From an uncultured Gammaproteobacteria bacterium (lineage in GTDB: Bacteria; Patescibacteriota; Patescibacteriia; 2-12-FULL-60-25), in contig CAYTIN010000001.1 of assembly GCA_964438015.1 (NCBI GenBank), forward strand, positions 54,074-118,073: a stretch of DNA of 64,000 nt, in the 5' to 3' direction. The translations under genes were made by a program, and so were the position numbers. Under the pieces are notes generated by a model. That model did no database searches. It was not told the DNA's origin and saw only the letters and a list, made by a program, of their open reading frames with translations. Below, one piece after another: positions 4,173-33,377 of the stretch; position 1 is the stretch's first letter; the number at the start of each line of letters is the position of its first letter.

Positions 4173-4550
4173 ATGGCCGGACTCGCAAGCAAACGGAACG
4201 GGAAGAAGGGCGGCCGTCCGAAAGGAACGGTCAGCTTCGAGACGCGCATCCAGAAACAGATCAAGCGCAAACTTCTTTCGGCCGTAAGCAAAGAGTTCAA
4301 GCCCATCATGGAAGCAATTCTTGATTCAGCCAAAGGGCTTACGCTTTACGTTCCAGGTAAGGACGGCAGACGCGACAAGGTGTACCGCCGAAGCCCGAAC
4401 GTCGACATGCTGAAGTACATCATGGACCAAGTCGCGGGTAAGGCATCGACACCTATCGAAGTCGAAGGAGAACTTGAGGTCGGTAACCTACAGGAATTTA
4501 TCTATGCCGCGTATGAAGCCTCGGAACGCAAACGACGCGGACGTTCTTGA
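4173..4550 (+). CDS. putative terminase small subunit
   Basis: Called by position immediately upstream of, and overlapping, the large terminase. Basic N-terminus (KRNGKKGGRPKG). No firm motif. Confidence 0.4.
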   Translation: MAGLASKRNGKKGGRPKGTVSFETRIQKQIKRKLLSAVSKEFKPIMEAILDSAKGLTLYVPGKDGRRDKVYRRSPNVDMLKYIMDQVAGKASTPIEVEGELEVGNLQEFIYAAYEASERKRRGRS

Positions 4551-5889: not shown

Positions 5890-5926
5890 CGGCGTTTTCG
5901 GAGACTCGTTCCGCGATACTCATGCC

Positions 5927-8944: not shown

Positions 8945-10129
8945 ATGTTGAAAGAATTGGAACAGTTCAAGTCGGAACTCGCGGAGGATATCAAGGGTCA
9001 CCTCGATAACGCCCTCCAAGAGAAAGTGAAAACCCTGATCGGTGACGAACGCGCAGGCATCGTGCGCGAAGCCGTCGAACAGCTGCGTCTTGAGAAACTC
9101 ATGCTCGGCCACGATAAGACCGGCCTTTCGGACGCTCAGAAGTCGGAGTTTGCGAAGTTCGTGAAGTCCATCGCCATCCCGTCGGCTGTCAAAGCCAATG
9201 AGACCATCATCGGCGAGCAGGATTCTCGCGGTGGCTACCTTGTGCCGACCGAAGTCGCCAACGCCATTTTGCGCGTGGCTGCAACCGTTGGCGTCGCTAT
9301 GAGCCAGTGTGCTCGCTGGGATATGAAAACGGACGAGCTCGACATTCCGAGCTACGCCGGTTCGTTTCTCGAAGGCGAATATCTCGGTGTCGATGCGGCA
9401 GGCAACGTCACGGGTATCACCTTCAAGATGGCGCGCCTCTTGGCCAAGCCATGGCAGCTCGCGTTCGTGGTCGGCAAAGATCTCTTGGCCGATGCGACGC
9501 CTGCCGTCGGCGAATGGCTTATCGCTCTCGCAGCGGAAGCCTTGGCCAACATGGTCGACAAGCAAGTCTTCATCGGTACGGGCAATCCATTCGTCGGCAT
9601 CATGTCGAGTGCGGATGTCGCAGCCTACAGCCTCGCATCAGGGGCGACTGGATTCGGTAACTATAAAGTCGTGGACGATTCGTCGGACGTGATCGCAAAC
9701 GTGGAAGAGTCCGTGCTTGATTCCGCCGCCTTCTACTTCAGCCGCACCAACTGGGCGAAGTTCCGCGCGCAGAAAGACACGGCTGGAAACTACTTGCTCC
9801 CGCAAGCCGGTTCCGTCCTGTCTGCCAATCCTCGGAACGGCGGTCCGAAACCCGCAGGCGAGATTCTCGGCTTCCCGGTTTACACCGTCCGCCATCTTCC
9901 GGCCTACAGCGCTTCCGCCGCAGGCACCAAGTTCGGCGTGTTTGGCAACCTCAAGGCTGTCGCTCTCGGCATGAAAGGCGAGATGGAAATGGAACGCTAT
10001 AACTCCGGTACGTTCGGCGGCAAGGAAATCGCCTTGGCTCGCCAGGTTGGAATGGTCATGGGTAACCGCCATGCGGCCGTGATCGCTCTGGCTGCCGCCC
10101 TTACGACCATCAAGACGGCCGCGTCCTAA
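8945..10129 (+). CDS. major capsid protein, HK97 fold
   Basis: N-terminal delta-like coiled region followed by GGYLVPTEVANAI, 394 aa, located directly after the protease. Confidence 0.85.
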   Translation: MLKELEQFKSELAEDIKGHLDNALQEKVKTLIGDERAGIVREAVEQLRLEKLMLGHDKTGLSDAQKSEFAKFVKSIAIPSAVKANETIIGEQDSRGGYLVPTEVANAILRVAATVGVAMSQCARWDMKTDELDIPSYAGSFLEGEYLGVDAAGNVTGITFKMARLLAKPWQLAFVVGKDLLADATPAVGEWLIALAAEALANMVDKQVFIGTGNPFVGIMSSADVAAYSLASGATGFGNYKVVDDSSDVIANVEESVLDSAAFYFSRTNWAKFRAQKDTAGNYLLPQAGSVLSANPRNGGPKPAGEILGFPVYTVRHLPAYSASAAGTKFGVFGNLKAVALGMKGEMEMERYNSGTFGGKEIALARQVGMVMGNRHAAVIALAAALTTIKTAAS

Positions 10130-15805: not shown

Positions 15806-15838
15806 AGTGTTCTAAAGGGGATTCTACTCCTAATTCCC

Positions 15839-16256: not shown

Positions 16257-16441
16257 AGAACCTCGTCGAAGGACGAGGTTCCTCGCTTCTCATAGATCCG
16301 GAAGATCTGGCCTCAGCGCACTGGAGACTTGACGCTTTCGCTCTCTGCCGCGCGTTCGGCTGGAGTTATGCGGAACTTGAAGCGACACCCTCCGACGTGA
16401 TCGACGATTTTCTCTACATTCTCACCCATGGCCAACGCTAA
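15945..16441 (+). CDS. tail assembly chaperone, -1 frameshifted long isoform (gpGT-like)
   Basis: The -1 frame is open from 16178 to TAA at 16439-16441. It adds 64 aa (RALENLVEG...FLYILTHGQR) and overlaps the tape measure ATG. Confidence 0.55.
16241..16281 (+). promoter_or_regulatory. -1 programmed ribosomal frameshift signal (slippery heptamer plus hairpin)
   Basis: C.CCA.AAA at 16241-16247 is in the zero frame. After a 10-nt spacer comes a perfect 10-bp stem, GAACCTCGTC-GAAG-GACGAGGTTC (16258-16281). Confidence 0.7.
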
Positions 16442-18746
16442 GCTGCAAATTGCCATTGAGGCTTCCAACAAGGCAGCCGGTGAATTGAAATCCCTCGAAA
16501 ATGATTTGCGCGGCGTATCGTCTGCGACCAATACGTCGGGAGTGGGCTTCGGAAAACTTGTCGGAGCCATCGGATTGGGAAATCTTGCCGCAAACGCCGC
16601 GAGCTCCGCATTCAACGCCTTGGGAGATTTCTTGAAAGGCACTCTTGAGGCTGCTGGTAATGCAGAAGCGGGCCAAGCCCAGCTCGCAGCTGTTTTGCAA
16701 TCTACGGGAATGGCGGCAGGAGTCACCGGAGAGATGGCGAATGATCTCGCAACCAAGATGGCGAACCTCTCGACCTTCACGGACGACGAGGTGCTTTCGG
16801 CCGAGAACCTGATGCTGACGTTTACAAAAGTCACGAAGGACGTTTTTCCGGATGCCATCCAAGCGGCGCTCAATGTCAGTACCGTCATGGGGCAAGACCT
16901 GAAATCTTCCGTGGTCCAGCTCGGCAAGGCGCTGAATAATCCGATTGACGGCCTCACGGCACTCACGCGCGTCGGCGTTTCCTTTACCGACCAGCAGAAA
17001 AAACAGATTGAGACACTGGTCGAAACGGGGAAGACGATGGATGCGCAGAAGATCATCCTGCAGGAATTAAACCGGGAATTCGGCGGATCGGCCGCAGCTG
17101 CCGCGAATACCTATCAAGGAAAAATAAAGCAGCTTAATAACGCGCTCGGAGAAGTGCAGGAGAATATCGGCAAAGCCGTACTGCCTGCGCTCAATCTTTT
17201 TGTTAACGATGCCTTGAGCGCCGCAAAAGGAGCGCAGGAAGCCACTACCAAGAACGATGGATGGTCCCGCAGCTTCTATAGCCTCGCCTCTGGCGCAAAA
17301 GCAGCCGGCTACGTTCTAAAGGGCTTGGCGTATGCCGTGCTCTCGCTTGGAACATTGCTTGTCGGAGGGGCGATTGAGGCAGTTGCCTTCGCATCCGACG
17401 TTGCCAAGTCTTTTAAGCGTATTGGGGAGATCGGACAGAACGTTTTCGCCGCATTAGCCAAGGCGATGACAGGGGACTTCGCAGGCGCGAAAGAATCGCT
17501 TGCCAAAGCCGTCTCAGCTTTTGATCTTTCCGGTTTCAACGCGACGGTGAAGCAGGTCAACAGGACTCTCGGATCTTTTGCGACGGACATGGACTACGCA
17601 TTCATTCAAGCCGGACAGGCAATGAAGGAAGGCGTAGTACAGCAAGGCTTCAAGCCTATCGAGAACGCAGCGCCGAACGTCGCGCGTCAGATCATGGATG
17701 CCGTGGGCGGCGGGACGGCCAAAGCCGCAGACAAGGCTAAGGAATCGCTTGGCAAATTCAAGGATGCCGTCGAAGCGACTCAGTCCAAGCTCTCTGACGC
17801 CATCCGTGACTACACGCAAAAATCCAATGACCGCCTGGACGACCATCGGAAGAAGGTTGCCGAAATCAATGCAGAGATGTCGCAGCTGCAGGAAGATTTT
17901 GCGAAGTCGACGGCCGACAGGGAGAAGCAATACCAAGACCAGCGCCTTGATCTATTCATGGCGCACCAGGACAAGCTGACGGAAGCACAAAAGGAATTCG
18001 CCAGCCTGCAGAAGGATTTACAGAACGCAGATGATCCCGACCGCCGCGCCGAACTCGAGGCGAGAGCGAGCGAAACCAAGAAGCAGCTTGATGCGGAACA
18101 GGCCATTGTCGATCAGTACGCGTCGCTCAAAGCGGATGCGGAAAAATATCGCGCTTCGAATGACCTCGAACGTTTACGGTTGAAGCATGAGGCCGAGAAC
18201 CTCGCCGACAAGCAAGCCTTCGACGAGAAGATGGCCACGCTCAAAGAGCGGATGCAGGAAGAGGAGGACGAGTACATAAAACAAACCGAACGTCTCAAGG
18301 AAGAGACCGTCCGGCGTTTTGACGAACTCCTGAAGGAATATAAAACCGGATACGACAAGCTGATTGCCGAATCAAAGATAAAACAGTCGGAACTTAAAGC
18401 CATTCAAGATCAGGCCGAGGCGACGCTTAAAGCCATCCAGGCGGCACGCAGCGCCATCACGTCAGCTCCGACGGGCAACGCAGCTGCGATTCCGCATCTT
18501 GCTGCAGGAGGCATCGTGACTCGTCCGACTATCGCCCTTATCGGCGAAAGAGGACCGGAAGCGGTGATTCCATTGAATCGCTCTGGAGCTGCCATCGGAG
18601 GGCAGCCGATTTCCGTTTCCATCTTAGAAGGTGCTGTTTTGAATATCTCGAACGAAGCCGACGAGTCGAGGCTTGCCCGCACCGTAGCCAAGGAACTTGC
18701 CAAGGTGCTCCAAGGCAATCGATTTGGCTTGGCAGCCCAAATGTAG
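16428..18746 (+). CDS. tail tape measure protein
   Basis: 772 aa. TP901-type core (LGKALNNPIDGLTALTRVGVSFTDQQKKQIE), a Gly/Ala-rich hydrophobic middle, and a long coiled coil. Confidence 0.9.
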   Translation: MANAKLQIAIEASNKAAGELKSLENDLRGVSSATNTSGVGFGKLVGAIGLGNLAANAASSAFNALGDFLKGTLEAAGNAEAGQAQLAAVLQSTGMAAGVTGEMANDLATKMANLSTFTDDEVLSAENLMLTFTKVTKDVFPDAIQAALNVSTVMGQDLKSSVVQLGKALNNPIDGLTALTRVGVSFTDQQKKQIETLVETGKTMDAQKIILQELNREFGGSAAAAANTYQGKIKQLNNALGEVQENIGKAVLPALNLFVNDALSAAKGAQEATTKNDGWSRSFYSLASGAKAAGYVLKGLAYAVLSLGTLLVGGAIEAVAFASDVAKSFKRIGEIGQNVFAALAKAMTGDFAGAKESLAKAVSAFDLSGFNATVKQVNRTLGSFATDMDYAFIQAGQAMKEGVVQQGFKPIENAAPNVARQIMDAVGGGTAKAADKAKESLGKFKDAVEATQSKLSDAIRDYTQKSNDRLDDHRKKVAEINAEMSQLQEDFAKSTADREKQYQDQRLDLFMAHQDKLTEAQKEFASLQKDLQNADDPDRRAELEARASETKKQLDAEQAIVDQYASLKADAEKYRASNDLERLRLKHEAENLADKQAFDEKMATLKERMQEEEDEYIKQTERLKEETVRRFDELLKEYKTGYDKLIAESKIKQSELKAIQDQAEATLKAIQAARSAITSAPTGNAAAIPHLAAGGIVTRPTIALIGERGPEAVIPLNRSGAAIGGQPISVSILEGAVLNISNEADESRLARTVAKELAKVLQGNRFGLAAQM

Positions 18747-18749
18747 CCT

Positions 18750-19598
18750 ATGTCTGTCTACCAATTTGATGCCGCAAAACTCGACACCGTCACATTGGAC
18801 GGTGCTTCGGCGACCTCTCCCGCGTCGACCGACGAGATTACCTTCAATAACTACGGCCTGCAGAACACGAGCATCCTGACCCGTTTCGTGAAGCTTTCCG
18901 CGCCCATTCTAGATCTGCAGAAACGAGCCTACCCGCGTGCGCAAGGCGCATATGCGGAAACCGCTTACTGGCGGGAGACGCATCTCGTCCTGCGCGGAAC
19001 CATCAAAGGATCGAGCCGGACGGATATGGAATCGCGGATGGATACGCTGCGAAAGAACCTCGCTGTCTTCGGCGGCATCCTCAAGATCCCTTGGGCCGGA
19101 ACTTCGCGCTACTACGAATGCTACGCCATCGGCCTCGACCGTATTTTCCAGGAACGCGACCACTACCACATGACGATGTGTCCGTACGAAATCGAACTCA
19201 TCGCCCTGCAGCCATTCGGCCGGAGTGGGGGACGGACGGTCACCGACGTTCCGACGCCTATAGCGGTTTCGCCGACGACCATGGAATTCGTAAACGCCGG
19301 AACGGCTGAAGCTGACTCGCTCGCGTATCTCACCGTCGTCACAGCCGGAACGCTTTCGCAGATTGTTTGGGAGAACACGACGAACGGCGACAAGGTGACC
19401 ATCCCTTCCAGTTTTTCGAATGGCGACCAGATCGTCATCGACGGCGAGAACCGCCGCGTCACGAAAAACGGCGTCGAGATCGACTACACCGGCGTCCTGC
19501 CGAAAATCATCTCAGGTTCGAACGCTTTCAAAATAACTCTTACGGGATCCGGTTTCTCGATCTCCGCGACCGAACTCCATTACTCACGCTTCTACTGA
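18750..19598 (+). CDS. distal tail protein (Dit-like siphovirus tail component)
   Basis: Called by position directly after the tape measure, plus size and beta-rich composition. Confidence 0.5.
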   Translation: MSVYQFDAAKLDTVTLDGASATSPASTDEITFNNYGLQNTSILTRFVKLSAPILDLQKRAYPRAQGAYAETAYWRETHLVLRGTIKGSSRTDMESRMDTLRKNLAVFGGILKIPWAGTSRYYECYAIGLDRIFQERDHYHMTMCPYEIELIALQPFGRSGGRTVTDVPTPIAVSPTTMEFVNAGTAEADSLAYLTVVTAGTLSQIVWENTTNGDKVTIPSSFSNGDQIVIDGENRRVTKNGVEIDYTGVLPKIISGSNAFKITLTGSGFSISATELHYSRFY

Positions 19599-19599
19599 T

Positions 19600-21120
19600 A
19601 TGTCGTATCAAAAACTTTTCGTCTTGGACCGCGCATCCTTTCTCTTGGATGCCCAGCTCCTTTCATCGCAGACCTCCGGAACCTTCACCGGATCTTCGGC
19701 GTCCGCGCTGGGAACGCAATCATGGAATATGCCCGCTGGCTACAAGGGCGTGCTCACCATCGAGAACGAGCAGATTCTTCTTTCTGCCATGTCGATTTCG
19801 GGCGGGGTCGTAACCTGCACCATCGACACGCGCGGGTACGACAATACGACGGCCGCGACTCATGCCTCCGGTGCAACTTGCGAGATCCATTTCACAAAAG
19901 GAAACCATGACCAGATTCAGGACTACCTTGCCGGTTTCGACGACGGAGGTTTTATCGTCCAAAGCGCGGTGACGACTGTTGTCTCGGCGACGAGCCACAC
20001 CATCAGCGGGGACAAGACGGCAATCTTCACGGTTGGACGCATCTATCTGTTCAAGGTGGCGGGCACTTGGTATCGCGGCGTCATTACGGCCGTTTCATAT
20101 TCCAACCCGACGACAACCATCACGCTCATGGGCGACGGATTGCCGGGATCTGGAACGGTGACGAACGCAGGCTTCGAATTCAACCAATCGGTCAACAAGG
20201 CCATCGACATCGCGCTCATCAAGCAAGTCACGACCGCTCCGGCGTCCAACCCGCCAGCGGGCTATCTCTACATTTGGGCGAAGAATGGTGGATGGTACAC
20301 GCGAGACAGCTCCGGCAATGTGCGCTATCTGAATGCCGTGACCGCTTCCGTATCATCTTCAAGCGGCGTTCTGACATGCGACTGTTCGACCGCGAATTTT
20401 TTCGAATGCACGCTCACGGAAAACATCACCCAAGTAACATGGCAAAACGGTACGGACGGGGAGAGCTATTTTATCCGTTTCCGTCAGCACGCTTCGGCAG
20501 CTAAAACTGTCGCCTTGAATACAGCCGGCGGGACGCGATTCTCGAATGATATTCCCTCCTATGTAGTCACGTCCGCCGTCTCGACCGTGGACTATCTCGA
20601 ATTCCGCTACCACAGCAGCGATACGAAGTGGGATCTCACAAAAGTCACTCAAGGATTCCAGGCTTCGCCCACGGCTGCCGCTTCGCTCCCTCCGGGCATC
20701 ATGGCTCCATACGGCGGTTCGTCGGCTCCCTCGGGCTGGCTGCTTTGCGACGGAGCTGCGGTATCGCGCACCACCTACGCCGCTCTATTCGCCATTCTCA
20801 GCACCGCATACGGGGTCGGCGATGGATCCACGACTTTCAACTTGCCGAACATGAAGGGGAACGTTCCGGCTGGCTACGATTCAGGACAAACGGAATTCAA
20901 CGCGCTGGGCAAAACGGGTGGCGCAAAAACGCACACGCTTCAGACCACGGAAATTCCGGCGCACACCCACAGCATTCCTGGCGCTTCCGGAACGTCCGGA
21001 GGATTCCCGCCTGCAACCGCGCAGAACGCGGGCGGGTGGACTTCAGGCTCTACGGGTGGCGGCGGAGCGCACAATAACTTGCAGCCCTACAACACGTTCA
21101 ACTTCATCATCAAGACGTAG
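19600..21120 (+). CDS. tail fibre protein with C-terminal phage tail-collar domain
   Basis: The C-terminus GWLLCDGAAVSRTTYAALFAIL...TFNLPNMKG...HTHS...HNNLQPY is the tail-collar (MdpB-like) signature. Confidence 0.75.
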   Translation: MSYQKLFVLDRASFLLDAQLLSSQTSGTFTGSSASALGTQSWNMPAGYKGVLTIENEQILLSAMSISGGVVTCTIDTRGYDNTTAATHASGATCEIHFTKGNHDQIQDYLAGFDDGGFIVQSAVTTVVSATSHTISGDKTAIFTVGRIYLFKVAGTWYRGVITAVSYSNPTTTITLMGDGLPGSGTVTNAGFEFNQSVNKAIDIALIKQVTTAPASNPPAGYLYIWAKNGGWYTRDSSGNVRYLNAVTASVSSSSGVLTCDCSTANFFECTLTENITQVTWQNGTDGESYFIRFRQHASAAKTVALNTAGGTRFSNDIPSYVVTSAVSTVDYLEFRYHSSDTKWDLTKVTQGFQASPTAAASLPPGIMAPYGGSSAPSGWLLCDGAAVSRTTYAALFAILSTAYGVGDGSTTFNLPNMKGNVPAGYDSGQTEFNALGKTGGAKTHTLQTTEIPAHTHSIPGASGTSGGFPPATAQNAGGWTSGSTGGGGAHNNLQPYNTFNFIIKT

Positions 21121-21126
21121 TTCCGT

Positions 21127-22241: not shown

Positions 22242-23291
22242 TTAGTCTAAAAGATCCCTGTTATCGAAGATCCGAGAGAGATGGGCGATAATCGTTCCCC
22301 ATTCCGAGATCGGTTTGTTGGACCACTTCTTCGTAATGTCGCGCGAGGCGTCCCATAAGCGGAAACGCAGACCTTCTTCGTTCGGCGAGATGCCCTTAGT
22401 GACGCGGCGGAATTCGCTATGCAGGCTTTCAATGGGATTCGTCGTGTAGACTAAGCGCCGCACAGGCTCCGGATAACTGAAGAATGAAGCGAGCTCTGGC
22501 CATTCTTTTTCCCAGCGGCGGAGGAACGGTTCAAAGTCAGGCCACTTCTTTTTCATTTCTTCAAGAGCGACCAACCCCGCTTCTTCCGTCGGAGCATTGT
22601 AGACCTCTTTGAGATCAGCGCAGAACTTCTCTTTGTTCTTGCCCGTCACATACTTGCTGCTGCCGCGGACAAGGTGATTGATGCACTGCTGAATGGTTGT
22701 TTTCGGAAAAACGTCGGTGATAGCCTTGGAGAATCCCTTAAGGCCGTCGATGCAGCAGATTAAAATGTCTTTGACTCCGCGATTTTTCAAATCGAGCAGA
22801 ACATTTCCCCAGAACTTAGCTCCTTCCGTATCAGCAATCCAGATTCCGAGAAGCTCTTTCTCGCCGTCCATGTTGATGCCCAGCGCATGATAGCTGCATT
22901 TGGTCACGGTCTTGCCGTTTTCTTTCACAGAGCAATGCATGCCGTCTAAAAAGACGATTGGATAAATATGGGAAAGGGGGCGGGTGAGCCATTCGTGCAT
23001 GCGAGGAATGTCTTCTTCAGATGCGGCCGAAATTTTTTCGCGCGACATCTCTACGCCTTCCGCTTCTTTCAGGTAGGCGCGAATACCGCCCGTGGTCATG
23101 CCTTTTCGCTTCAGCGCTTGAATCTTCTCTTTCACGTCAACCTGTTTTCCTGTGAGCTGCATCGATTCCATATTGTGGACGAGGAGCTCATACGAGGGGC
23201 CAAGGAGTTCTTTTAAAAAAGTCTTCTGATCTTCCGGCGAATCGAGCTCCTTTAGTTTTTCCTGAATGTCTGTGAATGTGAATGCTTCCAT
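22242..23291 (-). mobile_element. IS256-family (Mutator-type) transposase, N-terminally shortened
   Basis: The DDE region is clear: IVFLDGMH, ICCIDGLKGF, VYTTNPIESLH, plus the GAKFW motif. At 349 aa it lacks the segment normally lying between the N-terminal helices and the ...GMTT... box. I saw no terminal inverted repeats. Confidence 0.8.
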
Positions 23292-23340
23292 AAAGAATGA
23301 ATTTAGTTTTTAGCGCGACAAGCATGGAGGGGTGAGGGGA

Positions 23341-24213
23341 TTAGGTAAGATGTTTGTCCAATAGTTTTTGCATTTCTAAGAGTAAGACTTTTTCCTGGTT
23401 GGAGAATGGCGTCTCGGATTTCTCGTGCTTTTTGATCTCCTTGATCGAATCCTCCAGCCAGAGTGAGAAGCCCGACTGAATCGTGTTCTTCTCAAGATCC
23501 TCGACGCTCATATCCGGGTTAGACAAGAACCCGTGGATGTAGTTGATGTTCGCCGTGGTGCGCAGAAAGATGCGTCCCAGCGTGCGAAAATCCTTCGAGC
23601 TATGAATGACTTGGTACTTCACGCGCTCGAAGAGCGTTTTTACGATATCGTCGACCGTAAATTCTTTGATCGGCCGAAGCTTAGGATGCAGCTTCACGAA
23701 CTCGACCTGGTAGCTGGACGAAAGGCCATACTCGTCCATCATGTTTTTGTATTCAGACTTGAGTTTGCTCAGCTTCAAAGAATTACTGATTATCGTTTCG
23801 GAGATGAAAAGCTTTTCGGCCACCTTCTTGTTCTCGTTGATGCCTGAAGCCTTCTTGTAGTTCGCCAAAGCCTCTGCTCGTTCGGTTGGCTTCCAAAGCC
23901 GGCGGTTCGTCTGCCACTCGAAACGAATTCGTTCCAGCTGACCTGCTTCAAGTTTCGGATAGACAAGACAGGGGACTGTAGTCAGCCCGATTTCGCCAGC
24001 GCACTTATGGCGGCGATGCCCATCGATGATCTGGAATTTTCCGTTATCCAGCTTCATTACAGCAATCGGCTGCTGGACCCCAAACTCCTCAAGCGAAAGT
24101 CTGAGGCGATTCTTGTCGCCTTCGGTGTTGAAATCTTCGCGCGGCTGGCGGGGGTCGCGTACCAGCTGCCCGATGGGCAGCTCTTTGAATTCGGCGGAAA
24201 TGGGTTCGGTCAT
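23341..24213 (-). CDS. ParB/Srx N-terminal domain protein (290 aa)
   Basis: LPIGQLVRDPRQPREDF...FQIIDGHRRHKCAGEIGLTTVPC is a ParB box, followed by an HTH-like region. Start at ATG 24213. Confidence 0.7.
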   Translation of the reverse strand: MTEPISAEFKELPIGQLVRDPRQPREDFNTEGDKNRLRLSLEEFGVQQPIAVMKLDNGKFQIIDGHRRHKCAGEIGLTTVPCLVYPKLEAGQLERIRFEWQTNRRLWKPTERAEALANYKKASGINENKKVAEKLFISETIISNSLKLSKLKSEYKNMMDEYGLSSSYQVEFVKLHPKLRPIKEFTVDDIVKTLFERVKYQVIHSSKDFRTLGRIFLRTTANINYIHGFLSNPDMSVEDLEKNTIQSGFSLWLEDSIKEIKKHEKSETPFSNQEKVLLLEMQKLLDKHLT

Positions 24214-24421
24214 AAAAATTTCCGGCAGATTACACAAATTTTTTTATTGGCGTCAAGGGTGGGGGAGGTGATGATGTAGAAAAACCCCTAAAACACTAGG
24301 TAAAATCGCACTATTGCGGAGCACTAAGTGTGCAGCGCAGACATAGGGGAGGGCGCACGAAAATCAACGCAATCTTGGGGGAGCGCAATCGTCCCCAAAT
24401 GGCGCAACCGGAGATTTAAAA

Positions 24422-24454
24422 CCTAAAAACCCAGCTTGGTGCTGGGTTTTTAGG
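24422..24454 (-). terminator. intrinsic terminator closing the mod-res-parB-dam unit
   Basis: CCTAAAAACCCAGC-TTGGT-GCTGGGTTTTTAGG forms a 14-bp perfect stem, 16 nt after the dam stop. A T-run follows on the minus strand. Confidence 0.75.
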
Positions 24455-24469
24455 AGGTCCGTCAGGAAT

Positions 24470-25318
24470 TTAAACCTTCACCTTATCGGACATGATCATG
24501 ACCTCGCGACCTTTGCGGGACTCGTAGGCATTGTATCGTAAGGAGAAATTCTGAATTCTTCGCTTTGGATAAAGAGACTTGATCTGAACTTTATTATCGT
24601 AGGTCAATAACCAAAATGCATCTGGATTTGCGTTTAGACGGTCGGCAAGATCTGCATGATCTCCCTTTTGGTAATGGTTCAAATAAAGAGTTGATCCTTT
24701 TTCAAAATAGGGAGGATCCAAATAAATAAATGCATTTTTCTTTTTTAGGTAACGACCAATCAACGAGACTCCATCTTTGTTGAAAACCGATATCCTATTT
24801 TTGTATAGAGAGAGCTGCCTGATCCGCTCAGCCAATGCCACTCTATTAAAACGTGCATCGATCTTCCACTTGCCCTTCTGTTCAATGCCACCGATTGGTC
24901 CTCCATTTAGAATCCCAGAGACATTTGTTCTATTCAGATAAAATGTGGCAAAACCTAGCTCGAATCGCTTAGACTTGGGATTCGTGTAAATCTTTTTTTG
25001 CTTTCTCCATTCTTTGATTGTCAATGGAACCGAGGAAAGTTTTCTGATGAATTTTTCTGAATCAAAAATTGCAGACTTCCAAAATGAATATATCGCCTTA
25101 TCTAAATCATTGATGACAATCCTCTCCACCTTTTCTAAAAAGAGTAATGCCAAGGCTGCACCAGCACCGCCCGCAAATGGTTCAACGTACGTGACATTCT
25201 TTAAACCGCTATCCTTCAATACGCGGTCAAAGAAAGGGAAAAGCAAAGTCTTACCTCCAGGATATCGCAGGGGACTGTAGTAAAATTTCGGACTTTTTTT
25301 TTGAAGGATACGGATCAT
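24470..25318 (-). CDS. dam: DNA adenine methyltransferase, D12/Dam class (alpha-class)
   Basis: YYSPLRYPGGK, motif I VEPFAGGAGAAL, and motif IV YLDPPYFEKG. Start at ATG 25318, 4 nt after the upstream stop. Confidence 0.85.
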   Translation of the reverse strand: MIRILQKKSPKFYYSPLRYPGGKTLLFPFFDRVLKDSGLKNVTYVEPFAGGAGAALALLFLEKVERIVINDLDKAIYSFWKSAIFDSEKFIRKLSSVPLTIKEWRKQKKIYTNPKSKRFELGFATFYLNRTNVSGILNGGPIGGIEQKGKWKIDARFNRVALAERIRQLSLYKNRISVFNKDGVSLIGRYLKKKNAFIYLDPPYFEKGSTLYLNHYQKGDHADLADRLNANPDAFWLLTYDNKVQIKSLYPKRRIQNFSLRYNAYESRKGREVMIMSDKVKV

Positions 25319-25322
25319 GATC

Positions 25323-26702
25323 TTATTTCGGATCCAAAATGAATCGCAGCATTTTATCCATCGCATCCCAAGCGTCTTCCACGTCTTCTGGACGCGCAAA
25401 AATACTTGGATTGTGATTGATTGCATTAAAGAGCAGCGCTGAATATGCAGTCATCTTTGAGTCGTCCCTGATCCTTTCGCCGACCTGACGCAGCTCATGG
25501 TTCTGCTCCGTCTTCATTTTAGCAATAAAAGCATCAAGTGCGCCATCTAGATAAACGTATCCACCCTGTCTTTGCGGCTGTAGAGCCTGACCGATGTGGG
25601 AGAAGTACGCTTTTAATGCGCATTCCAAGAAGCTTCTAAGAAGATCATGAGCGGCGTTCGGGAATCGATGATGATCGATGGTTTGGAGTTCGTTGAGCAT
25701 CTTTCGAACCCCGGGAGCATTGAGACCGAATTTAACATTTTTTGGTGCTGGGGATTTCCGTTTCTGCGTCTTAACCACTTGCAGAGGACGAAAATTCTTA
25801 CTTGTCAGGATTTTTCCCGTTGCTTTAGTTTTGTTTGGAACATCACTCGGAGGCAAGCTTGCTAGGTATTTCTTGCGTTGATCCTCCTTGTTCAATTTAC
25901 GAGAGTCGATATTCTTCTCTACCACGTCCTGAACGATGCGCTTGAACCCTTTTTCGAATTCTTTTCTCTCAATCTGAATATTCACCTCACCGTCCTTATC
26001 AAAATCAAAACCCAAAAAGTCTCGAACATTCTTATCTTCGTACAAGCGCTCGATGGTCGTAGCAGGAAACGAACGTTCGTCGCGAACTTTTTGATCGATA
26101 GAGTCAGAGTCAAACTTGATGGATTTCGCGATTTGATGAACGCTCAACATTCTCAAAAATCTTTCAATGTTGACGTTCGGATATTCGTTCCGAAGTTCCT
26201 CAACAGTTTTACCTCTCGAGAGCTCAGCTTGATAGAAATGCGCCTGCCTCAACGGCCGCCAGGCACGTCGAGTGTTCTGAGTGTGTTTGCTGGCCAAAAA
26301 ATGGTTAACAGCGGCTCTATTCGGAGCTACAAGGACATCGATTTCATCGATGGAATATCCTAAATCCTTAGCCAATATTTCTATCCTTTTTTCGCGAGAG
26401 GGTACAACTTGAGGACGTAGAAGAGCCTTTAAAGAGGCGATGCGACGATTACCCTCTATCACAACATATTTTTTCTTTTCCTTAACGACAACAGGCAATT
26501 CATCTGGAAAGAATCCGTGTGAGGATATGCTCTCTAGAACCTGCATGGCATCCTCATTTACAAAAAGATCATTAATGAGAGATTCTTGGGCATCCAAAGG
26601 CTGCAGAAGACGAATATTTTCTGGATCAAGAAAAAGATCTGTGATTTTTACCCGTTCTCGGGTCCAGTCTTTGTACTTGGGTTTCTCAAATGTCTTTTTC
26701 AT
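25323..26702 (-). CDS. ParB/Srx N-terminal domain protein with a large uncharacterised C-terminal region (459 aa)
   Basis: VKITDLFLDPENIRL...YVVIEGNRRIASLKAL is a ParB arginine box. The remaining ~340 aa are unassigned. The ATG overlaps the res stop (ATGA at 26699-26702). Confidence 0.7.
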   Translation of the reverse strand: MKKTFEKPKYKDWTRERVKITDLFLDPENIRLLQPLDAQESLINDLFVNEDAMQVLESISSHGFFPDELPVVVKEKKKYVVIEGNRRIASLKALLRPQVVPSREKRIEILAKDLGYSIDEIDVLVAPNRAAVNHFLASKHTQNTRRAWRPLRQAHFYQAELSRGKTVEELRNEYPNVNIERFLRMLSVHQIAKSIKFDSDSIDQKVRDERSFPATTIERLYEDKNVRDFLGFDFDKDGEVNIQIERKEFEKGFKRIVQDVVEKNIDSRKLNKEDQRKKYLASLPPSDVPNKTKATGKILTSKNFRPLQVVKTQKRKSPAPKNVKFGLNAPGVRKMLNELQTIDHHRFPNAAHDLLRSFLECALKAYFSHIGQALQPQRQGGYVYLDGALDAFIAKMKTEQNHELRQVGERIRDDSKMTAYSALLFNAINHNPSIFARPEDVEDAWDAMDKMLRFILDPK

Positions 26703-29404
26703 ACTTTCAAGAGATCAAATATTTCTTTCGGGTCTTCCAGTGCTTTAAATTCCCAACTTCCGAAACCGCCATGAGCATTCACAGCTCTGACCCATTCTTC
26801 GGCAGCAGCCCACTTAGCCTTATCCTGTTCCTTTTTTTGCCCCTTCACTTCAATAATCATATACCGTTCACCTTCGAATCGCAGAAGGAAGTCTGGAAAA
26901 TATGTGTGGACTTTTCCTTGCCAGAGATAGTAAATCTCGAATCCAAGATGATCATTCTTGGCCCAGGATAGAAGGTGGGGGATGCGATTACGCTCAAATT
27001 CGAATCCTACGGACTCCCATCCGCTATCCATGACGATGTGACTCAGTTGGCTCTTTTGAACTGGCTGAGTCGGCTTCGCGGTATACCAAATCGGCGCTGA
27101 TGCTGTGCTACGAAGTGGACGTACGTTGTCGAACACAGGAGCCGGCTCATCCTTACTTGAACTTTTAATAAATTGGCCAATGTGTTCAACAATGCGTTGA
27201 AGGTTGGTCGCAATCAGCACTCGACGGAAGAGATCTCCTTCTTTCGTTTTTGGCACTTTCACATCAAGCTTATCTGACACGATAAAACGATCTAGCAAGG
27301 TCATCAATTGGCTAATGTGACTACCGGCATCACCTTCCCAATTCGAGCCAAGCTTATTCTGTAGCTGAACCGAAGCCTGAAGTTTAGACTTTTGCATCCG
27401 ATGCTCATCCGCTAATTGCTCAAGATCGATTTGCGTCACTTTGGAGAAGTCCGGCTTGCCATCAATGGTCGGCGCAACTTCAACGACCGTAGGGGTATTC
27501 TCGGCCGAGAGCACAAGTGGTGAAAGCTTATCCCACTGGAGATCGAGAAAATATCTAAGCTTGTATTCGACTCGGATTACGTGCGGCCAACGGATTTCCA
27601 AATCTCGACGCGCGATAATAGGCTCGACCTTGGTTTTGGGCGGCATTTCACGCGGCGGCCCCGACTCCGTTTGTTCAACGGGCAGGAAGGTAAATGGAAC
27701 ACCGAAAACAGTAACGTATTCCGCTTCTAACAAGCCCGTTTCAGGATTAACGTCATACGAAATACGTCGGAGCCCACGACCCACAACCTGTTCACACAGA
27801 AGCTGACTAGTGAATGCGCGAACGCCTAAAATATGCGTGACTGTTTTCGCATCCCATCCCTCTGAGAGCATGTTTACGCCAATCACGCATTGAATGTTTT
27901 GACCTGCTTTTCCCTCCTTACCAACCGTATTCATTTTTTCGCGTAATTGCTCAGCCTGTTTCTCCTTACTACCCAAACTCTTGGTTTCCTCTGCTTCGAC
28001 CCTATCTAACGCATCCTGATCAACGCGGATTAATCGATCTTTTTCCTGTAACTCATGAACGGCCGTGAAGCCATTTACAATCGAATATTCAACGCGTGCT
28101 GCGGTTTCAGTTCGATTGCAGATAACAATCATGACCGGAGGAACCTTCATGCCGCCCTTACTCCAACTATCCCTCTCCTTAAGCCAATCTCCCCCTAGGA
28201 TGTTAAGAGCCTGAGAAAGAAGATCCGGGAGACCTTCGTGAGATTCAGCACGCCGATTTAAATCATCCTTCATTTCGGGGTACATGTGGAACAACTTCGA
28301 TTTGAAATCGGAGCCAACACCAGAGTCATCACGGACCGCGACCTTAGGCGTCTTCACGAGCCCACTTTCGATTGCATCATTGAGTCCAAAGTCGCTCACA
28401 ATCCAGCTGAACAATGATTCTCCCGCATTGTTGTGTCCGGATGGACGGAAAGGGGTTGCTGATAAATCATACGTTCTTAAAACGCCACGAGCTCTATGTA
28501 TGCGCTCGATTCCACTAATCCATATCGTAGCCTGTTCCTTTTCAATTCCGCTCAGTTCTTCACCCTCAGATGGCTGATGGCAGTGATGCGCTTCATCGTT
28601 TATGACAAGTATATTTTGTACGCCTCCAAAATCCGGGAGAACGCGTCGAACAAAAGCTTCATCGCTCTCTGGCCCTTTTTTGATCACCTTCGGGCCAGCA
28701 TTCTCATCAAGCGGTGCAAGAGTATGCCAGTTTGTAACCTGTATCTTTGCCCCTTGTAGCTCCTGCCACATGTGAGAGGGGATGACATTGAATGCTTGAT
28801 AGTAATTCTCTGAATCTGATGGCAAGAGAACCTGAAGACGGTCACGGACGGTAATACCTGGTGCAAGAATGAGAATATTTTTTGAAAATCGACCATCTTT
28901 CGGATTCGCGAGTTTATTCAAAGACTGCCATGCAATCAACATGGCCATCACTATCGTCTTTCCTGTTCCTGTAGCAAGTTTAAGACACTGACGTTCCCAA
29001 TCATTCTCACTTGGGATATCGATACCTTGTTTCTCGGCCGGACTGGCCTCGGTAAGCCAAATCGCCGTCTCAATCGCCTCAAGTTGGCACCAGAAGAATG
29101 GAAATTGTCGCTGTTCGCGGTCATTCCAATGATCTAAAAGTTTTTTTGTCGTTCCAGAAATTCCAGGATAGCCTGCGTCGCGCCACGACTTTACTCTAGG
29201 TCGAATTCGATTGACGAGCTCTATTTGGATAAATTCTCCAGGATCATCATAATTTCGTTTATTCGATCCAGAGGCGCGCCAGTATCCGGCCGGACGTCGC
29301 CCATCTTCAAGAATAAACTGCTGAGATTCTCGAGCGTAGACCCAATGCTTAGCCGGTTCTTGGTAGGGGCTGTTGATGATCAATTGTTCAATTTTTGCGC
29401 TCAT
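26699..29404 (-). CDS. res: Type III restriction enzyme Res subunit (SF2 helicase plus C-terminal PD-(D/E)xK nuclease)
   Basis: N-terminus INSPYQEPAKHW, Walker A LATGTGKT, DEAH-box VINDEAHHC, and C-terminus YFPDFLL...MIIEVKGQ. The start overlaps the mod stop. Confidence 0.85.
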   Translation of the reverse strand: MSAKIEQLIINSPYQEPAKHWVYARESQQFILEDGRRPAGYWRASGSNKRNYDDPGEFIQIELVNRIRPRVKSWRDAGYPGISGTTKKLLDHWNDREQRQFPFFWCQLEAIETAIWLTEASPAEKQGIDIPSENDWERQCLKLATGTGKTIVMAMLIAWQSLNKLANPKDGRFSKNILILAPGITVRDRLQVLLPSDSENYYQAFNVIPSHMWQELQGAKIQVTNWHTLAPLDENAGPKVIKKGPESDEAFVRRVLPDFGGVQNILVINDEAHHCHQPSEGEELSGIEKEQATIWISGIERIHRARGVLRTYDLSATPFRPSGHNNAGESLFSWIVSDFGLNDAIESGLVKTPKVAVRDDSGVGSDFKSKLFHMYPEMKDDLNRRAESHEGLPDLLSQALNILGGDWLKERDSWSKGGMKVPPVMIVICNRTETAARVEYSIVNGFTAVHELQEKDRLIRVDQDALDRVEAEETKSLGSKEKQAEQLREKMNTVGKEGKAGQNIQCVIGVNMLSEGWDAKTVTHILGVRAFTSQLLCEQVVGRGLRRISYDVNPETGLLEAEYVTVFGVPFTFLPVEQTESGPPREMPPKTKVEPIIARRDLEIRWPHVIRVEYKLRYFLDLQWDKLSPLVLSAENTPTVVEVAPTIDGKPDFSKVTQIDLEQLADEHRMQKSKLQASVQLQNKLGSNWEGDAGSHISQLMTLLDRFIVSDKLDVKVPKTKEGDLFRRVLIATNLQRIVEHIGQFIKSSSKDEPAPVFDNVRPLRSTASAPIWYTAKPTQPVQKSQLSHIVMDSGWESVGFEFERNRIPHLLSWAKNDHLGFEIYYLWQGKVHTYFPDFLLRFEGERYMIIEVKGQKKEQDKAKWAAAEEWVRAVNAHGGFGSWEFKALEDPKEIFDLLKV

Positions 29405-31923
29405 AGTGATTTCACAACAAACGATTCAATCCCGCGATCATCAATAATCTTTACCGCAATCTTCCTATTCGTTCCGGGGGAAAAGGGGAGTGACTCGATG
29501 CCGGTAAAAGCTTCCATCAATTCCTCGTTCACCGCGCCATTCAAAGATTTGGCTAACTTAGTCCAATCCCTACTTGAATCCTGCATAGGAAAGAAGACCT
29601 GATCCGGGAGAAGACTCTGCTCATCATAATCGGTATCCAACATCCACATCGCAATCTTGCTCGCTCCACCAGAATCAATTTCACCACTTACCGGATTGTA
29701 GTAATCGAACCCTTTTACAACGACCTTGAAGGTACCGTTTTTCTCTGGCATGATCTCAACATCAGGTTGACCAATAAGCCAAAAACTCTGATTTGAAGAT
29801 CGTTTTTTTCTTAAATCTTCCGTCAAAAGATCCACGCTCATCTGCGCTTTCAAGATCGTGATATCACCAGCTCCAAATTTCATTTGATCGATATCTTTCG
29901 CCGCTTCGGGATCAAAATGGAAAGCTGCAAAAATGAGGAAGTTTGGCTTTTCCTGCATGCCCACTGCTTCATTGACTGCTTGCTCAACTTGACGCTGCTC
30001 AAGCGGGCCGAAGTCTGGACCAAAACTTATATAGGCTTTTTTGGGCTGACCTACGCTGTCTAGTATTTCACCCTCAGCATGAAGCCATTTCGTACCGCTT
30101 AACGGCTCAATACGAGAAAATTGCAGGAAGTGGCCCCCGGTAGCACGAATTCCACTAGCCTTTAGTTCATCACACCAGTGCGCATAGTTAGCAGTTTCGC
30201 CTGCACGAGCAACTGCATTCCCAGTAATGGAAGAATTTCTCTCTTTTGAATCAAAGGGTTTTGTTCTGAGAGAGGGGACAGCTTCTACCGTAAATGGACC
30301 AGCGGCTCTAACTTTTTCTTTTTCTACCTTTGGCTGATCGTATAACGTCTCCTCGTGTGGAGGAGCATTATTAGCGACACTCGCCATTGTGATTCTTGGG
30401 TAGGTTTTGTAGATGAATCCGCTTTGCAGTCCTTCCTCGGGTTTCTTAAGTGCAAAATAAGGGAAGGCCGCTGTCATCATTCGCTGCTTAGCCAGAGCAA
30501 TAGCAACCCTCGATGTATCACATGCCATCCAACGTCTACCGAATAGCTCCGCAGTGTAGGCAGTGGAACCTGATCCGCACGTTGGATCGAATACCAAATC
30601 GCCTGGATCCGTTGTTAGCAGCATGCAGCGCCTAATGATCTCAGTATTTGTCTGAACCACGTAAATCGGATTCGCCGCACCACCAAACCCTTCCCATAGG
30701 TTGCTAAGTGTCTTATACGGAAAATCATCAAAATACTTAACAAAGCGAATGCTGTTCTCAGTCGCCCAGATGCGGCCTGCACTAATAATTTTTTCTATAC
30801 CTTCTTTTGTTGTTCCCCACCATCTGGATCCAGAATCATATTTTCGTCCTTTAAATTCGACGTCGAATTTTGATCCGGGTCCTGGCTTAGTCATTAAAAC
30901 TGTTGAGAAAAGTTTGCTTCCCTTGGGGAGTAATTTGATGTTCTTTTTTTCCTCAGGGGTCAGATTACGTCTCTCACCATCTGCTAATTCCACCATCGTG
31001 TAACCTTCTTCGACCGGCCCTCCTCGTTCTTCAAAAACAGGACGATATTTCATTCGCTCGGCATTCTTTGCATACCAAACAATATAATCTAGACGTGAGC
31101 CAACTCGATTAGCAGCCTCCAAACCACCGGCCGCTTTCGAGAACGCGATCATGGAAATAAAGTTATCTTTTCCAAATACCTCATCCATGATTTCTCGTAC
31201 GTGATGAACGTTCTCGTCATTGATTTGTAAAAAACAGCTCCCAGTTTCGTGAAGCAAACTCTTTATCAATTGGACCCTGTCCCGAAGATAGGTCAGGTAG
31301 GAATGGATTCCTAACTCCCATGTATCGCGGAAGGCTTTTATCATCTCTGGCTCAGATGAGAGGCCCTCATCGCTTCCATCCTTAACATCTCTACGATTAA
31401 CGAAGGGTTGAAAATTTGAATTGTACTTAATTCCGTATGGAGGATCGAAATAAACCATTTGCAAGTGTCCCTCCATGCCTTCCTTTTCGAGCAGACTGTT
31501 CATGACCAACAACGAGTCGCCGGCAATCAATCGATTACTCCAATCTTGATCATGCGAATAAAATTCAACAGCTTTATTTAAAGGGAGCTGATTCTCAATA
31601 TATTCGAAAAGCGACTGCTGCTTTAAGCCTGTTCGTTCACGTAAAAAGGATTTGATGATGCGCCGAGAATCAATTCTTTCGTGGACATGCAAGCTTACGA
31701 CCGGAACATCAAAATTCGTTCCTTCGGCCTTACCGGCCCAACTCAGATTCGGATCTATGTGCGGGTCGTGTTGGTATTTTTTCACACCACCAACACTATC
31801 CGTAGCGGTCGATACAAGTCCAACAGGAGGATTGTTGGTGCGTTTGCGGCCAACGTGCGTGTACGCTGCAACGCTAATCTCTTTGGGCGCAGCCGCCCGG
31901 GTTGAAACCGCTTTTCTAGGCAT
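29401..31923 (-). CDS. mod: Type III-like DNA methyltransferase Mod (beta-class N6/N4)
   Basis: Motif IV VYFDPPYGIKYNS precedes motif I VFDPTCGSGSTA. 840 aa. Confidence 0.85.
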   Translation of the reverse strand: MPRKAVSTRAAAPKEISVAAYTHVGRKRTNNPPVGLVSTATDSVGGVKKYQHDPHIDPNLSWAGKAEGTNFDVPVVSLHVHERIDSRRIIKSFLRERTGLKQQSLFEYIENQLPLNKAVEFYSHDQDWSNRLIAGDSLLVMNSLLEKEGMEGHLQMVYFDPPYGIKYNSNFQPFVNRRDVKDGSDEGLSSEPEMIKAFRDTWELGIHSYLTYLRDRVQLIKSLLHETGSCFLQINDENVHHVREIMDEVFGKDNFISMIAFSKAAGGLEAANRVGSRLDYIVWYAKNAERMKYRPVFEERGGPVEEGYTMVELADGERRNLTPEEKKNIKLLPKGSKLFSTVLMTKPGPGSKFDVEFKGRKYDSGSRWWGTTKEGIEKIISAGRIWATENSIRFVKYFDDFPYKTLSNLWEGFGGAANPIYVVQTNTEIIRRCMLLTTDPGDLVFDPTCGSGSTAYTAELFGRRWMACDTSRVAIALAKQRMMTAAFPYFALKKPEEGLQSGFIYKTYPRITMASVANNAPPHEETLYDQPKVEKEKVRAAGPFTVEAVPSLRTKPFDSKERNSSITGNAVARAGETANYAHWCDELKASGIRATGGHFLQFSRIEPLSGTKWLHAEGEILDSVGQPKKAYISFGPDFGPLEQRQVEQAVNEAVGMQEKPNFLIFAAFHFDPEAAKDIDQMKFGAGDITILKAQMSVDLLTEDLRKKRSSNQSFWLIGQPDVEIMPEKNGTFKVVVKGFDYYNPVSGEIDSGGASKIAMWMLDTDYDEQSLLPDQVFFPMQDSSRDWTKLAKSLNGAVNEELMEAFTGIESLPFSPGTNRKIAVKIIDDRGIESFVVKSL

Positions 31924-32021
31924 AAATATGGCTCAATTCTCCCTCATTTGCGGCTAGTTTACAAGGGCGGCCGGTTAAGGTATTTTTGCAGTAACTATCA
32001 TGATCCACTGCCTCAGGAGAT

Positions 32022-32080: not shown

Positions 32081-32156
32081 GCTCCCGTAGGCTAATGGAT
32101 TAAACCACCTCGGTTCTAACGAGGATTTCCGGGTTCGAGTCCCGGCGGGAGTACCA
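32081..32156 (+). tRNA. tRNA-Arg (anticodon TCT), CCA encoded
   Basis: Folded by hand: acceptor GCTCCCG/CGGGAGT, anticodon arm CCTCG-GTTCTAA-CGAGG, T arm CCGGG-TTCGAGT-CCCGG. Confidence 0.85.
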
Positions 32157-32498: not shown

Positions 32499-33377
32499 AT
32501 GCGTGAACCTACAGGGTTAACGCTCCAAGAGGGTCTTTCAGAGTTTACGGAATGGGGGATGGGTAAGTACTCCCATAACACGGTGAGGACCTATACGGAC
32601 CTCATCGGACGGTTCATCACGTTCGCCGGCGACAGGCCGCTGGCGGATATCAAAGTGACCGAGATCGCCAAATATCACGGCTATCTCAAAAACAAGGACT
32701 ACGCTGACTCCTCCGTCGCCTTCATGATGGTCGCGCTACGTCAGTTCATGAAATACCTGTTCCTGCGGCACGAAATCACTTGGGACTACCAGCTGGTGTC
32801 GGTCCCAAAGTACGTCAGCCGCTCCTATGCGCCCGTAGAGACTGAAGATGCCAGATCGATGATCGATGGGCTGCGTGCTGACAATTTTCGTAGCCTACGC
32901 GATAAGGTCATGCTCTCATTCCTCTATTCGTCAGGCGTCCGCGTTGCCGAGCTCTGCTGCCTTGAAACGAAGGATCTCCGGATCCAAGATGGCCATGGCT
33001 CAATCATCTCCAAAAAGAACCGCCAGCTTCGCATGGTGTTCTGGGACGATGCGACTGCAGCGCTCTTGAATGAATATCTGCCTCAACGCAATCTCTGGGC
33101 AACGTCTGATGCGCTATTCATCTCCATGGACCGCAAGAATAGGGGAGGGAAGCTATCAACGAGGACTGTCCAGCGGCTTGTAGCCGATCTGCGGCCGAAC
33201 AAGAATATTTCGCCGCACTCATTCCGACACGGTTTAGGCATGCGGGCAGTAAAGTCGGGGATACACCCTCGTTACATCCAAAAAATCCTCGGGCACAAGA
33301 ATATCAACTCGAGCCAGATCTATCTGGACGTACATGACGAAGATGTCGTCAAAGCGTACCAAAAGATCGCGGCCTAA
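32499..33377 (+). CDS. tyrosine recombinase/integrase (XerC/D-like)
   Basis: SAM-like N-domain, then catalytic SGVRVAEL (R), HSFRHG (HxxR), LGHKNINSSQIY (H...Y). Confidence 0.85.
   Translation: MREPTGLTLQEGLSEFTEWGMGKYSHNTVRTYTDLIGRFITFAGDRPLADIKVTEIAKYHGYLKNKDYADSSVAFMMVALRQFMKYLFLRHEITWDYQLVSVPKYVSRSYAPVETEDARSMIDGLRADNFRSLRDKVMLSFLYSSGVRVAELCCLETKDLRIQDGHGSIISKKNRQLRMVFWDDATAALLNEYLPQRNLWATSDALFISMDRKNRGGKLSTRTVQRLVADLRPNKNISPHSFRHGLGMRAVKSGIHPRYIQKILGHKNINSSQIYLDVHDEDVVKAYQKIAA

Follow-up and report, generated by a model that had tools for sequence, protein, structure and literature searches.

A predicted PD-lambda-5-type two-gene anti-phage cassette behind a BPTD_3080-type restriction–modification pair in a prophage of an uncultured bacterium

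Gene layout of the locus

We analyzed a 64,000-nucleotide (nt) stretch of DNA from an uncultured Gammaproteobacteria bacterium (GenBank assembly GCA_964438015.1, contig CAYTIN010000001.1), referred to here as the window, in which an open reading frame (ORF) of 459 amino acids (aa) lies on the minus strand at 25323..26702. This gene, termed A, follows a Type III-like methyltransferase gene (mod) and a 901-aa restriction gene (res), and it is itself followed by a gene for a Dam-like DNA methylase, termed B. As described below, A is very likely subunit A of a PD-lambda-5-type two-gene anti-phage module whose partner is the downstream Dam-family methyltransferase B.

The ORF check confirmed that A begins with ATG and that this start lies inside the stop codon of res, as a first-pass annotation of the sequence had stated. 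The plus strand reads tcat at 26699..26702, which gives ATGA on the minus strand, with the ATG of A at 26702..26700 and the TGA of res at 26701..26699. The resulting overlap of res and A is 4 nt, mod (29401..31923) and res (26699..29404) also overlap by 4 nt, and B, which encodes 282 aa according to the gene call, starts 4 nt past the stop of A. Additionally, a terminator-like hairpin with a 14-bp stem and a T-run (24454..24422) is located 16 nt 3' of the B stop. The tight packing and the terminator after B therefore indicate a transcription unit consisting of mod-res-A-B, the end of which is marked by the hairpin. A longer, 318-aa form of the methylase ORF was rejected, because the gene call and the homologs favor the 282-aa start at 25318.

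Assignment to the PD-lambda-5 family

A matches 24 PD-Lambda-5_A models of PADLOC, the best with an E-value of 2.2e-58. Several of these models, PDLC04013 among them, cover aa 15-457 of A, and PDLC04008 spans its C-terminal half (aa 201-453). Similarly, B matches the PADLOC model PD-Lambda-5_B with an E-value of 7.2e-109 over aa 49-317 of the long ORF; it also matches Pfam MethyltransfD12 (E 7.7e-18) and contains a DPPY motif. The matches of both proteins agree with the earlier suggestion that A belongs to a defense locus.

A database search with A returned 289 homologs at E<=1e-3, and the best 120 of these 289 are nearly all full length, with 52-63% identity. With a profile, the search reached 4480 cluster representatives at E<=1e-3, including 426 at E<=1e-30. 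This abundance of full-length homologs indicates that A is a real gene. Among the matches listed, the closest homologs belong for the most part to Patescibacteria or to other uncultured lineages, and members outside the query's own cluster at approximately 50% identity share about 24-47% identity with the query. The A protein itself gave no meaningful match to Pfam or NCBIfam, and PDB sequences searched with the single sequence and with a 23-sequence profile gave only noise. One sub-threshold Pfam match, to G6PD_C, covers the last helices of A (aa 404-454, window positions 25338-25493, E 1.2e-4) and recurs at the last helix in 10 of 23 family members. We treated this assignment as spurious; it falls under the curated cut-off, though it is oddly consistent.

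PD-lambda-5 was discovered by functional selection in Escherichia coli ECOR7 as the protein pair RCQ13837.1 and RCQ13838.1 (Vassallo et al. 2022, PMC9519451), and the supplement of that paper lists it as 'ParB/HEPN, methyltransferase', with two genes and 2461 bp. Cloned alone, the system affected all but one of ten test phages, and its cloning needed an mrr-deleted host (PMC9519451), which in our reading implies an active DNA methylase. In the later literature that we found, PD-lambda-5 figures only in surveys and no mechanism is reported.

Conserved partner of A across genome loci

We took 23 related loci from species-representative genomes, which were searched with the proteins of the window. 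At 21 of these loci, a B homolog with 39-78% identity directly follows A, with the two genes overlapping or at most a few tens of nt apart. One exception (L021) is a truncated A on a 2-kb contig that is followed by FtsK, and the other (L024) is a degraded copy in which A is fragmentary and B is split. Moreover, the identities of A and B covary across the loci (r = 0.94, n=21). Two viral contigs have the pair as well, and so does Marinobacter phage AS1, in which it adjoins the integrase. Homologs of the res and mod of the window occur at only one of the 23 loci (L006), in the order res-mod-A-B. Collectively, these results show that the conserved partner of A is the downstream Dam-like methylase, not Res.

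A related but split arrangement was observed beside portal gene Q in P2-like phages, namely Escherichia phage vB_EcoM-12474III (L025:2980-6016) and Yersinia phage L-413C. It consists of a 372-aa ParB N-domain protein that matches aa 18-233 of the query, a 330-aa protein without a Pfam match, and, encoded on the other strand, a C5 cytosine methylase.

Restriction–modification (R-M) genes of unrelated types stand directly beside A-B, on the same strand, at 8 of the 23 loci; they lie within 8 kb at 5 more, and the remaining 10 have none nearby. Upstream of the pair, we found a helicase followed by a methylase/S fusion (L003), hsdS-hsdR of a Type I system (L005), a Type III-like res-mod (L006), and a C5 methylase (L017). 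Downstream, the pair is followed by two N6/N4 methylases and then a ResIII protein (L009, again Type III-like), or by hsdM and, further on, hsdS of Type I systems (L019 and L020). Finally, in L014, the pair is enclosed by a Type I system in the order hsdM-A-B-hsdS ... hsdR. In this last locus (L014:6544-16902), hsdS is followed by genes of 270 aa and 184 aa, an AAA_14/DUF4143 ATPase gene, and an EcoEI-type hsdR, an arrangement that recalls prrC inside EcoprrI. In L020 (10271-14381), a DUF6119 protein (E 2e-132) is encoded between hsdM and hsdS, downstream of A-B.

Replacement of the cassette in sister islands

Sister islands of the window were located via its res and methylase proteins. Three of them (L029-L031) resemble the window in having the integrase, mod, and, at the far side, the phage tail genes; their Res protein is 92.6% identical to that of the window. 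The slot after res, in contrast to that of the window, is occupied by two unrelated genes, one of 247 aa and one of 126-134 aa (134 aa in L029), of which the first starts 3 nt past the res stop (L029:10716-11832, and likewise in L030 and L031). DNA homology to the window ends at 26715, with 16 nt left before the res stop, and picks up again within the tail genes. Neither slot gene has a Pfam or PADLOC match, and both are candidates for undescribed defense or anti-defense cargo.

A fourth island, L032, contains mod-res-A-B, with 91% identity to the window for res, 83% for A, and 94% for B. The junction between res and A in this island reads TAG-ATT-ATG, not ATGA; therefore, the start/stop overlap in the window reflects tight packing and not a conserved coupling. 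Furthermore, the homology of L032 reaches exactly to the B stop and then jumps to window position 22179, so that L032 is without the classical ParB (23341..24237) and the IS256-family transposase (22242..23291) of the window. These two genes therefore appear to have been inserted later, downstream of B. The classical ParB had been considered as a third component and was rejected, as it lies beyond the terminator and, together with the transposase, is absent from L032 and from all but one other locus. The cassette is bounded precisely by the stop codons of res and B. Collectively, the comparison of the sister islands indicates that A-B is a discrete cassette and that a variable cargo slot exists behind res.

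Domain organization of A

We built an AlphaFold model of A from 23 homologs (mean predicted local distance difference test score, pLDDT, 83.6) and compared it with PDB structures by Foldseek, two of the checks that the first-pass annotation had suggested. The top matches are the cytidine triphosphate (CTP) clamps ParB, Noc, and KorB, led by 6sdk_B (E 1.7e-5). Fifteen matches fall below 1e-3, all with a probability of 1.0, and the alignments extend over 220-290 columns against ParB/Noc/KorB chains of 180-220 residues, which comprise the N-domain and the helix-turn-helix (HTH) region. Additionally, a 100-member profile of A matches Helicobacter pylori ParB (4umk) with an E-value of 4.4e-4, with Box I and GxRR in register; over the HTH regions of 4umk and 1vz0, the same profile is in register, but the match is weak and not significant. 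A PHROG ParB-like family also matches A (E 2.4e-6). Pfam scans of 23 and 100 family members gave only weak ParB-clan matches, and hhalign of the A family against the classical ParB of the window aligned 19 columns around GxRR only, with a probability of 6%. The ParB/Srx N-terminus proposed earlier is thus borne out by the 6sdk_B structure match, the 4umk profile alignment, and the PHROG family.

Residue conservation was counted in 130 diverse members with 24-47% identity. N29, R31, G84, N85, R86, R87, H140, and W148 are invariant in all 130, and D26, E83, and T141 are nearly so. Most of these residues belong to two motifs, DPxNxR (D26, N29, R31) and E83-G84-N85-R86-R87, while H140, T141, and W148 occupy the position of ParB Box III, ahead of the HTH region. 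We take DPxNxR to be the counterpart of NPxQPR in ParB, EGNRR that of GERR, and KHTQN that of ENLQR. In ParB, CTP hydrolysis has been attributed to the Gln in QPR and the Glu in GERR.

The central part of A consists of a small alpha/beta element (aa ~231-300), in which R268 is conserved in 128 of 130 members, and a basic linker (aa ~300-328) that is poorly ordered according to the pLDDT of the model. For aa ~231-329 as a whole, no structural match was obtained.

When modeled alone, aa 330-459 form a helical bundle with a pLDDT of 88 and a predicted template modeling (TM) score, pTM, of 0.84. The best PDB matches of this bundle are HEPN domains: 1wol (probability 0.82, TM 0.52/0.58), followed by the sacsin HEPN domain 3o10_C (TM 0.54/0.56), 4nqf, HepT toxins, and AbiV. 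A Foldseek search of a viral structure library gave nothing significant, and the Pfam HEPN models matched neither 100 A members nor those of a 23-member scan. The family motif in this domain is [N/D]426-x3-H430-N431, with H430 present in 128 of 130 members. R356 (129 of 130) and E338 (128 of 130) are also conserved, as are E360 and W445. In contrast, HHRFPNAAH, which the first-pass annotation had quoted, is not a conserved motif, and we rejected it as an Rx5H HEPN motif, as R346 occurs in 22 and H352 in 19 of 130 members. The bundle may thus be a HEPN-like domain of non-canonical form, which agrees with the published 'ParB/HEPN' label. The first-pass annotation had left about 340 aa of A unassigned, which holds for sequence libraries but not structurally, since aa ~150-230 extend the ParB match and aa 330-459 form a confidently modeled bundle.

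Prophage context

The defense operon lies between phage structural genes and an end formed by a transfer RNA (tRNA) gene, tRNA-Arg, and a tyrosine integrase gene (Table 1). These flanks therefore identify the defense genes as prophage cargo, as reported for PD-lambda-5. The guanine-cytosine content of the island (24000-32000) is 44-46%, compared with 50-56% in the prophage structural region to its left, which is consistent with separately acquired cargo. The structural module is siphovirus-like and extends over 4474-22206, with genes for terminase, portal, protease/scaffold, major head, minor tail, tape measure, Dit, and tail fiber. Just upstream of the terminase gene, a third ParB-domain gene (2900-4126) encodes a fusion of a ParB N-domain with a DNA methyltransferase (phrog_498, E 5e-142). 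Beyond the integrase, three further tRNA genes (Leu-CAA and two Met-CAT) cluster at 35421-37602.

Table 1. Features of the locus and of the surrounding prophage, in window coordinates
Feature	Position	Strand	Evidence
Predicted PD-lambda-5 subunit A gene, 459 aa	25323..26702	-	ORF, PADLOC, homologs, AlphaFold model
ParB/Srx N-terminal (NTP-binding type) domain of A, aa ~10-130	26313..26675	-	Foldseek, profile vs 4umk, conserved columns
Helical region of A like ParB HTH, aa ~150-230 (boundaries approximate)	26013..26255	-	Foldseek, weak profile matches
Small alpha/beta element and basic linker of A, aa ~231-329	25716..26012	-	Secondary structure, pLDDT, conservation
HEPN-like helical bundle of A, aa 330-459	25326..25715	-	Domain model, Foldseek, motif statistics
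Predicted PD-lambda-5 subunit B, Dam-family (D12) N6-adenine DNA methyltransferase, 282 aa, DPPY motif	24470..25318	-	PADLOC, Pfam, gene call
Terminator-like hairpin	24422..24454	-	14-bp stem, then T-run
ATGA overlap, res stop / A start	26699..26702	-	Sequence; differs in sister island L032
BPTD_3080-family restriction subunit (res), 901 aa, ResIII helicase and TnsA-like nuclease; neighboring separate system	26699..29404	-	NCBIfam NF046055 E 9e-302, Pfam
Type III-like N6/N4 DNA methyltransferase (mod) of that restriction system, 840 aa	29401..31923	-	PADLOC MTase_III E 2e-147, Pfam N6_N4_Mtase
Classical ParB (N-domain and HTH, 290-298 aa) and IS256/Mutator-family transposase; outside the module	22242..24237	-	Pfam, NCBIfam, gene call, island comparison
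Terminase	4474..5889
Portal	5819..8026
Major head	8945..10129
Tape measure	16428..18746
Dit	18750..19598
Tail fiber	19600..21120
tRNA-Arg(TCT), between mod start and integrase	32081..32156
Tyrosine integrase	32499..33377

Discussion

Based on these observations, A-B very likely forms a self-contained PD-lambda-5-type cassette in a prophage cargo slot, behind an unrelated BPTD_3080-type mod-res pair and on the same transcript. Similar to the reference system, two adjacent, co-oriented and prophage-borne genes encode a 'ParB/HEPN' protein of ~450-500 aa and then an adenine methyltransferase of ~290 aa. The link rests on the PADLOC models of both proteins (E 2e-58 and 7e-109); both profile matches and architecture agree with PD-lambda-5 membership, and phage protection by the present pair is predicted from them. 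One difference from PD-lambda-5 is that the pair lies in one operon behind a BPTD_3080-type mod-res pair. This operon fusion represents a local variant of a known family.

For the mechanism of the pair, we tentatively propose a methylation-guided ParB-like sensor and effector, which we regard as a possible scheme and not yet as the probable one. B would methylate a short site on the host DNA and thereby mark it as self. A would dimerize, probably through its C-terminal HEPN-like bundle, which takes the place of the ParB dimerization domain, and its ParB-type HTH would engage unmethylated sites on incoming DNA. Nucleotide binding at the DPxNxR/EGNRR pocket might then close the N-domains of A, as in ParB clamps, and this closure would license the effector, with either the ParB/Srx domain nicking DNA or the HEPN-like domain cleaving RNA. 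The outcome would be restriction and/or abortive infection, with the upstream Res/Mod acting as a parallel, independent barrier. Nucleases of the ParB/Srx type are known (PMC12839542), and ParB-HEPN fusions as well as operons with ParB, HEPN, and methylase genes have been predicted (Anantharaman et al. 2013, PMC3710099). A more specific version, in which A is a ParB-type nucleotide-gated clamp that serves as an immune sensor, loads at sites left unmethylated by B, and switches on an HEPN-like effector with [N/D]x3HN and a distal Arg, appears rather unlikely at present. Taken as a whole, the explanation that combines the identity of the module with this mechanism is moderately favored.

Several observations weigh against this explanation. 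The phosphate-binding arginines appear to be kept in A, but the residues corresponding to the hydrolytic Gln and Glu are both Asn (N29 and N85); thus, the N-domain may bind nucleotide without hydrolyzing it, or it may work differently. Moreover, all matches of the C-terminal bundle have E-values of at least 0.87, so that none is significant, and designed helical bundles reach similar scores. The family also lacks the canonical Rx4-6H motif, with no Arg 4-6 residues before H430. Finally, in the window, A shares a tightly packed operon with res and mod, and some functional cross-talk of A-B with R-M systems is possible, since varied R-M genes flank many loci.

Comparison with known systems places A near several families. 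Similar to the ParB/Noc/KorB clamps (6sdk, 7bnr, 7nfu, 8qa8), A is predicted to combine a ParB/Srx fold with an HTH region, with Box I and GxRR in register. In contrast, the QPR Gln and the GERR Glu both correspond to Asn in A, the Box III sequence ENLQR is KHTQN, an HEPN-like bundle stands in place of the dimerization domain, and the partner is a methylase. Judged from sequence and models, A may therefore be likened to the clamps but is probably not a member of that group, as its catalytic residues, C-terminal domain, and partners differ. The GmrSD/BrxU/SspE enzymes (DUF262 and DUF1524 HNH) also fuse a ParB-superfamily N-domain to a C-terminal effector, and weak GmrSD_N matches were found for the N-domains of some A family members; this likeness concerns the design logic only. 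These enzymes target modified DNA and have no cognate methylase, whereas A has an obligate methylase partner, and no HNH/DUF1524 domain was matched in the Pfam scans of 23 and 100 members. The same combination of parts as in A-B was predicted for ParB-HEPN fusions of the Saro_3948 type and for MAE_28990 HEPN operons with a ParB nuclease and a methylase (PMC3710099). Those HEPN families mostly keep Rx4-6H, whereas the A family has [N/D]x3HN and the distant R356.

According to the first-pass annotation, A could assist the Res helicase-nuclease, to which it would be translationally coupled, in DNA loading or sensing, or could serve it as a second effector. The ATGA overlap and the single mod-res-A-B operon with one terminator fit this proposal, as do the BPTD_3080-type res and mod directly upstream of A-B in L006 and the mod-res-A-B order kept in sister island L032. 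However, res/mod homologs accompany the pair at 1 of 23 loci, where the order is res-mod, while B follows A at 21; the 92.6%-identical res of L029-L031 is followed by two genes (247 aa and 126-134 aa) unrelated to A-B; L032 does not keep the overlap; and PD-lambda-5 works as two genes without such a Res (PMC9519451). A role of A in DNA sensing or as an effector is plausible, but a role as a helper of Res is very unlikely. Alternatively, A-B might monitor any neighboring R-M system in the manner of PrrC and fire an HEPN-like RNase for abortive infection when a phage inhibits that system. Directly adjacent, co-oriented R-M genes at 8 of 23 loci and others within 8 kb at 5 more would suit this idea, although ordinary clustering in defense islands may explain the pattern. 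HEPN proteins in R-M operons are, moreover, a known theme (PMC3710099). PrrC/RloC with EcoprrI likewise place an NTPase and HEPN-type effector gene in or beside an R-M operon, and the pair in L014 stands between hsdM and hsdS. PrrC differs in that it has an ABC-type ATPase, relies on its R-M partner, and brings no methylase, whereas A-B includes one and the reference PD-lambda-5 works alone. A specific physical interaction is unlikely with R-M partners of such unrelated types, 10 of 23 loci have no nearby R-M genes, the two-gene clone of PD-lambda-5 protected a laboratory host, and the methylase that the module always carries would be needless for a pure guard. We consider this alternative improbable, though less so than a role as Res accessory.

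Two further explanations were considered. A could act purely as a ParB/KorB/DndB-like nucleotide-dependent repressor that controls the expression or activity of methylase B and has no effector function, which would accord with KorB, a CTP-dependent repressor, being among the closest structural matches and with weak DndB and GmrSD_N sequence matches in the A family; DndB has been described as the regulator of a modification system (PMC10853773). Yet a methylase and its repressor cannot harm a phage, and PD-lambda-5 defends broadly. In addition, E338, R356, and H430, present in 128-129 of 130 members, are typical of an active or ligand-binding site and less so of a simple dimerization module. 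This explanation carries slightly less weight still than the dependence on Res. The ParB N-domain and HTH fold would also be expected of a ParB that serves segregation or maintenance of a mobile element. Here, neither the window operon nor the annotated neighbors showed a ParA-type gene next to A, although ParA was not explicitly searched for. The C-terminal domain is not a ParB dimerization domain, A has a DNA methylase as its obligate partner and belongs to an integrated prophage, and a separate classical ParB lies downstream, so a partition role is extremely improbable.

The assignment to PD-lambda-5 connects the locus to an experimentally validated, broad-spectrum anti-phage system. The family is large, with 4480 cluster representatives, many close homologs from candidate-phyla bacteria, and members also in phages. 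The natural swap of the cassette shows that A-B is independent of the restriction enzyme ahead of it, and it carries a lesson for annotation, namely that a 4-nt start/stop overlap is no proof of a functional partnership. Type I and Type III R-M operons may also be favored recipients of A-B cassettes, which would add a second defense layer to them. Furthermore, the domain map and the residues N29, R31, E83, N85, R86, R87, H140, W148, E338, R356, and H430 make PD-lambda-5 testable. If A did act as a clamp-type immune sensor, ParB CTP-switch biology would reach beyond chromosome segregation and gene regulation, into immunity.

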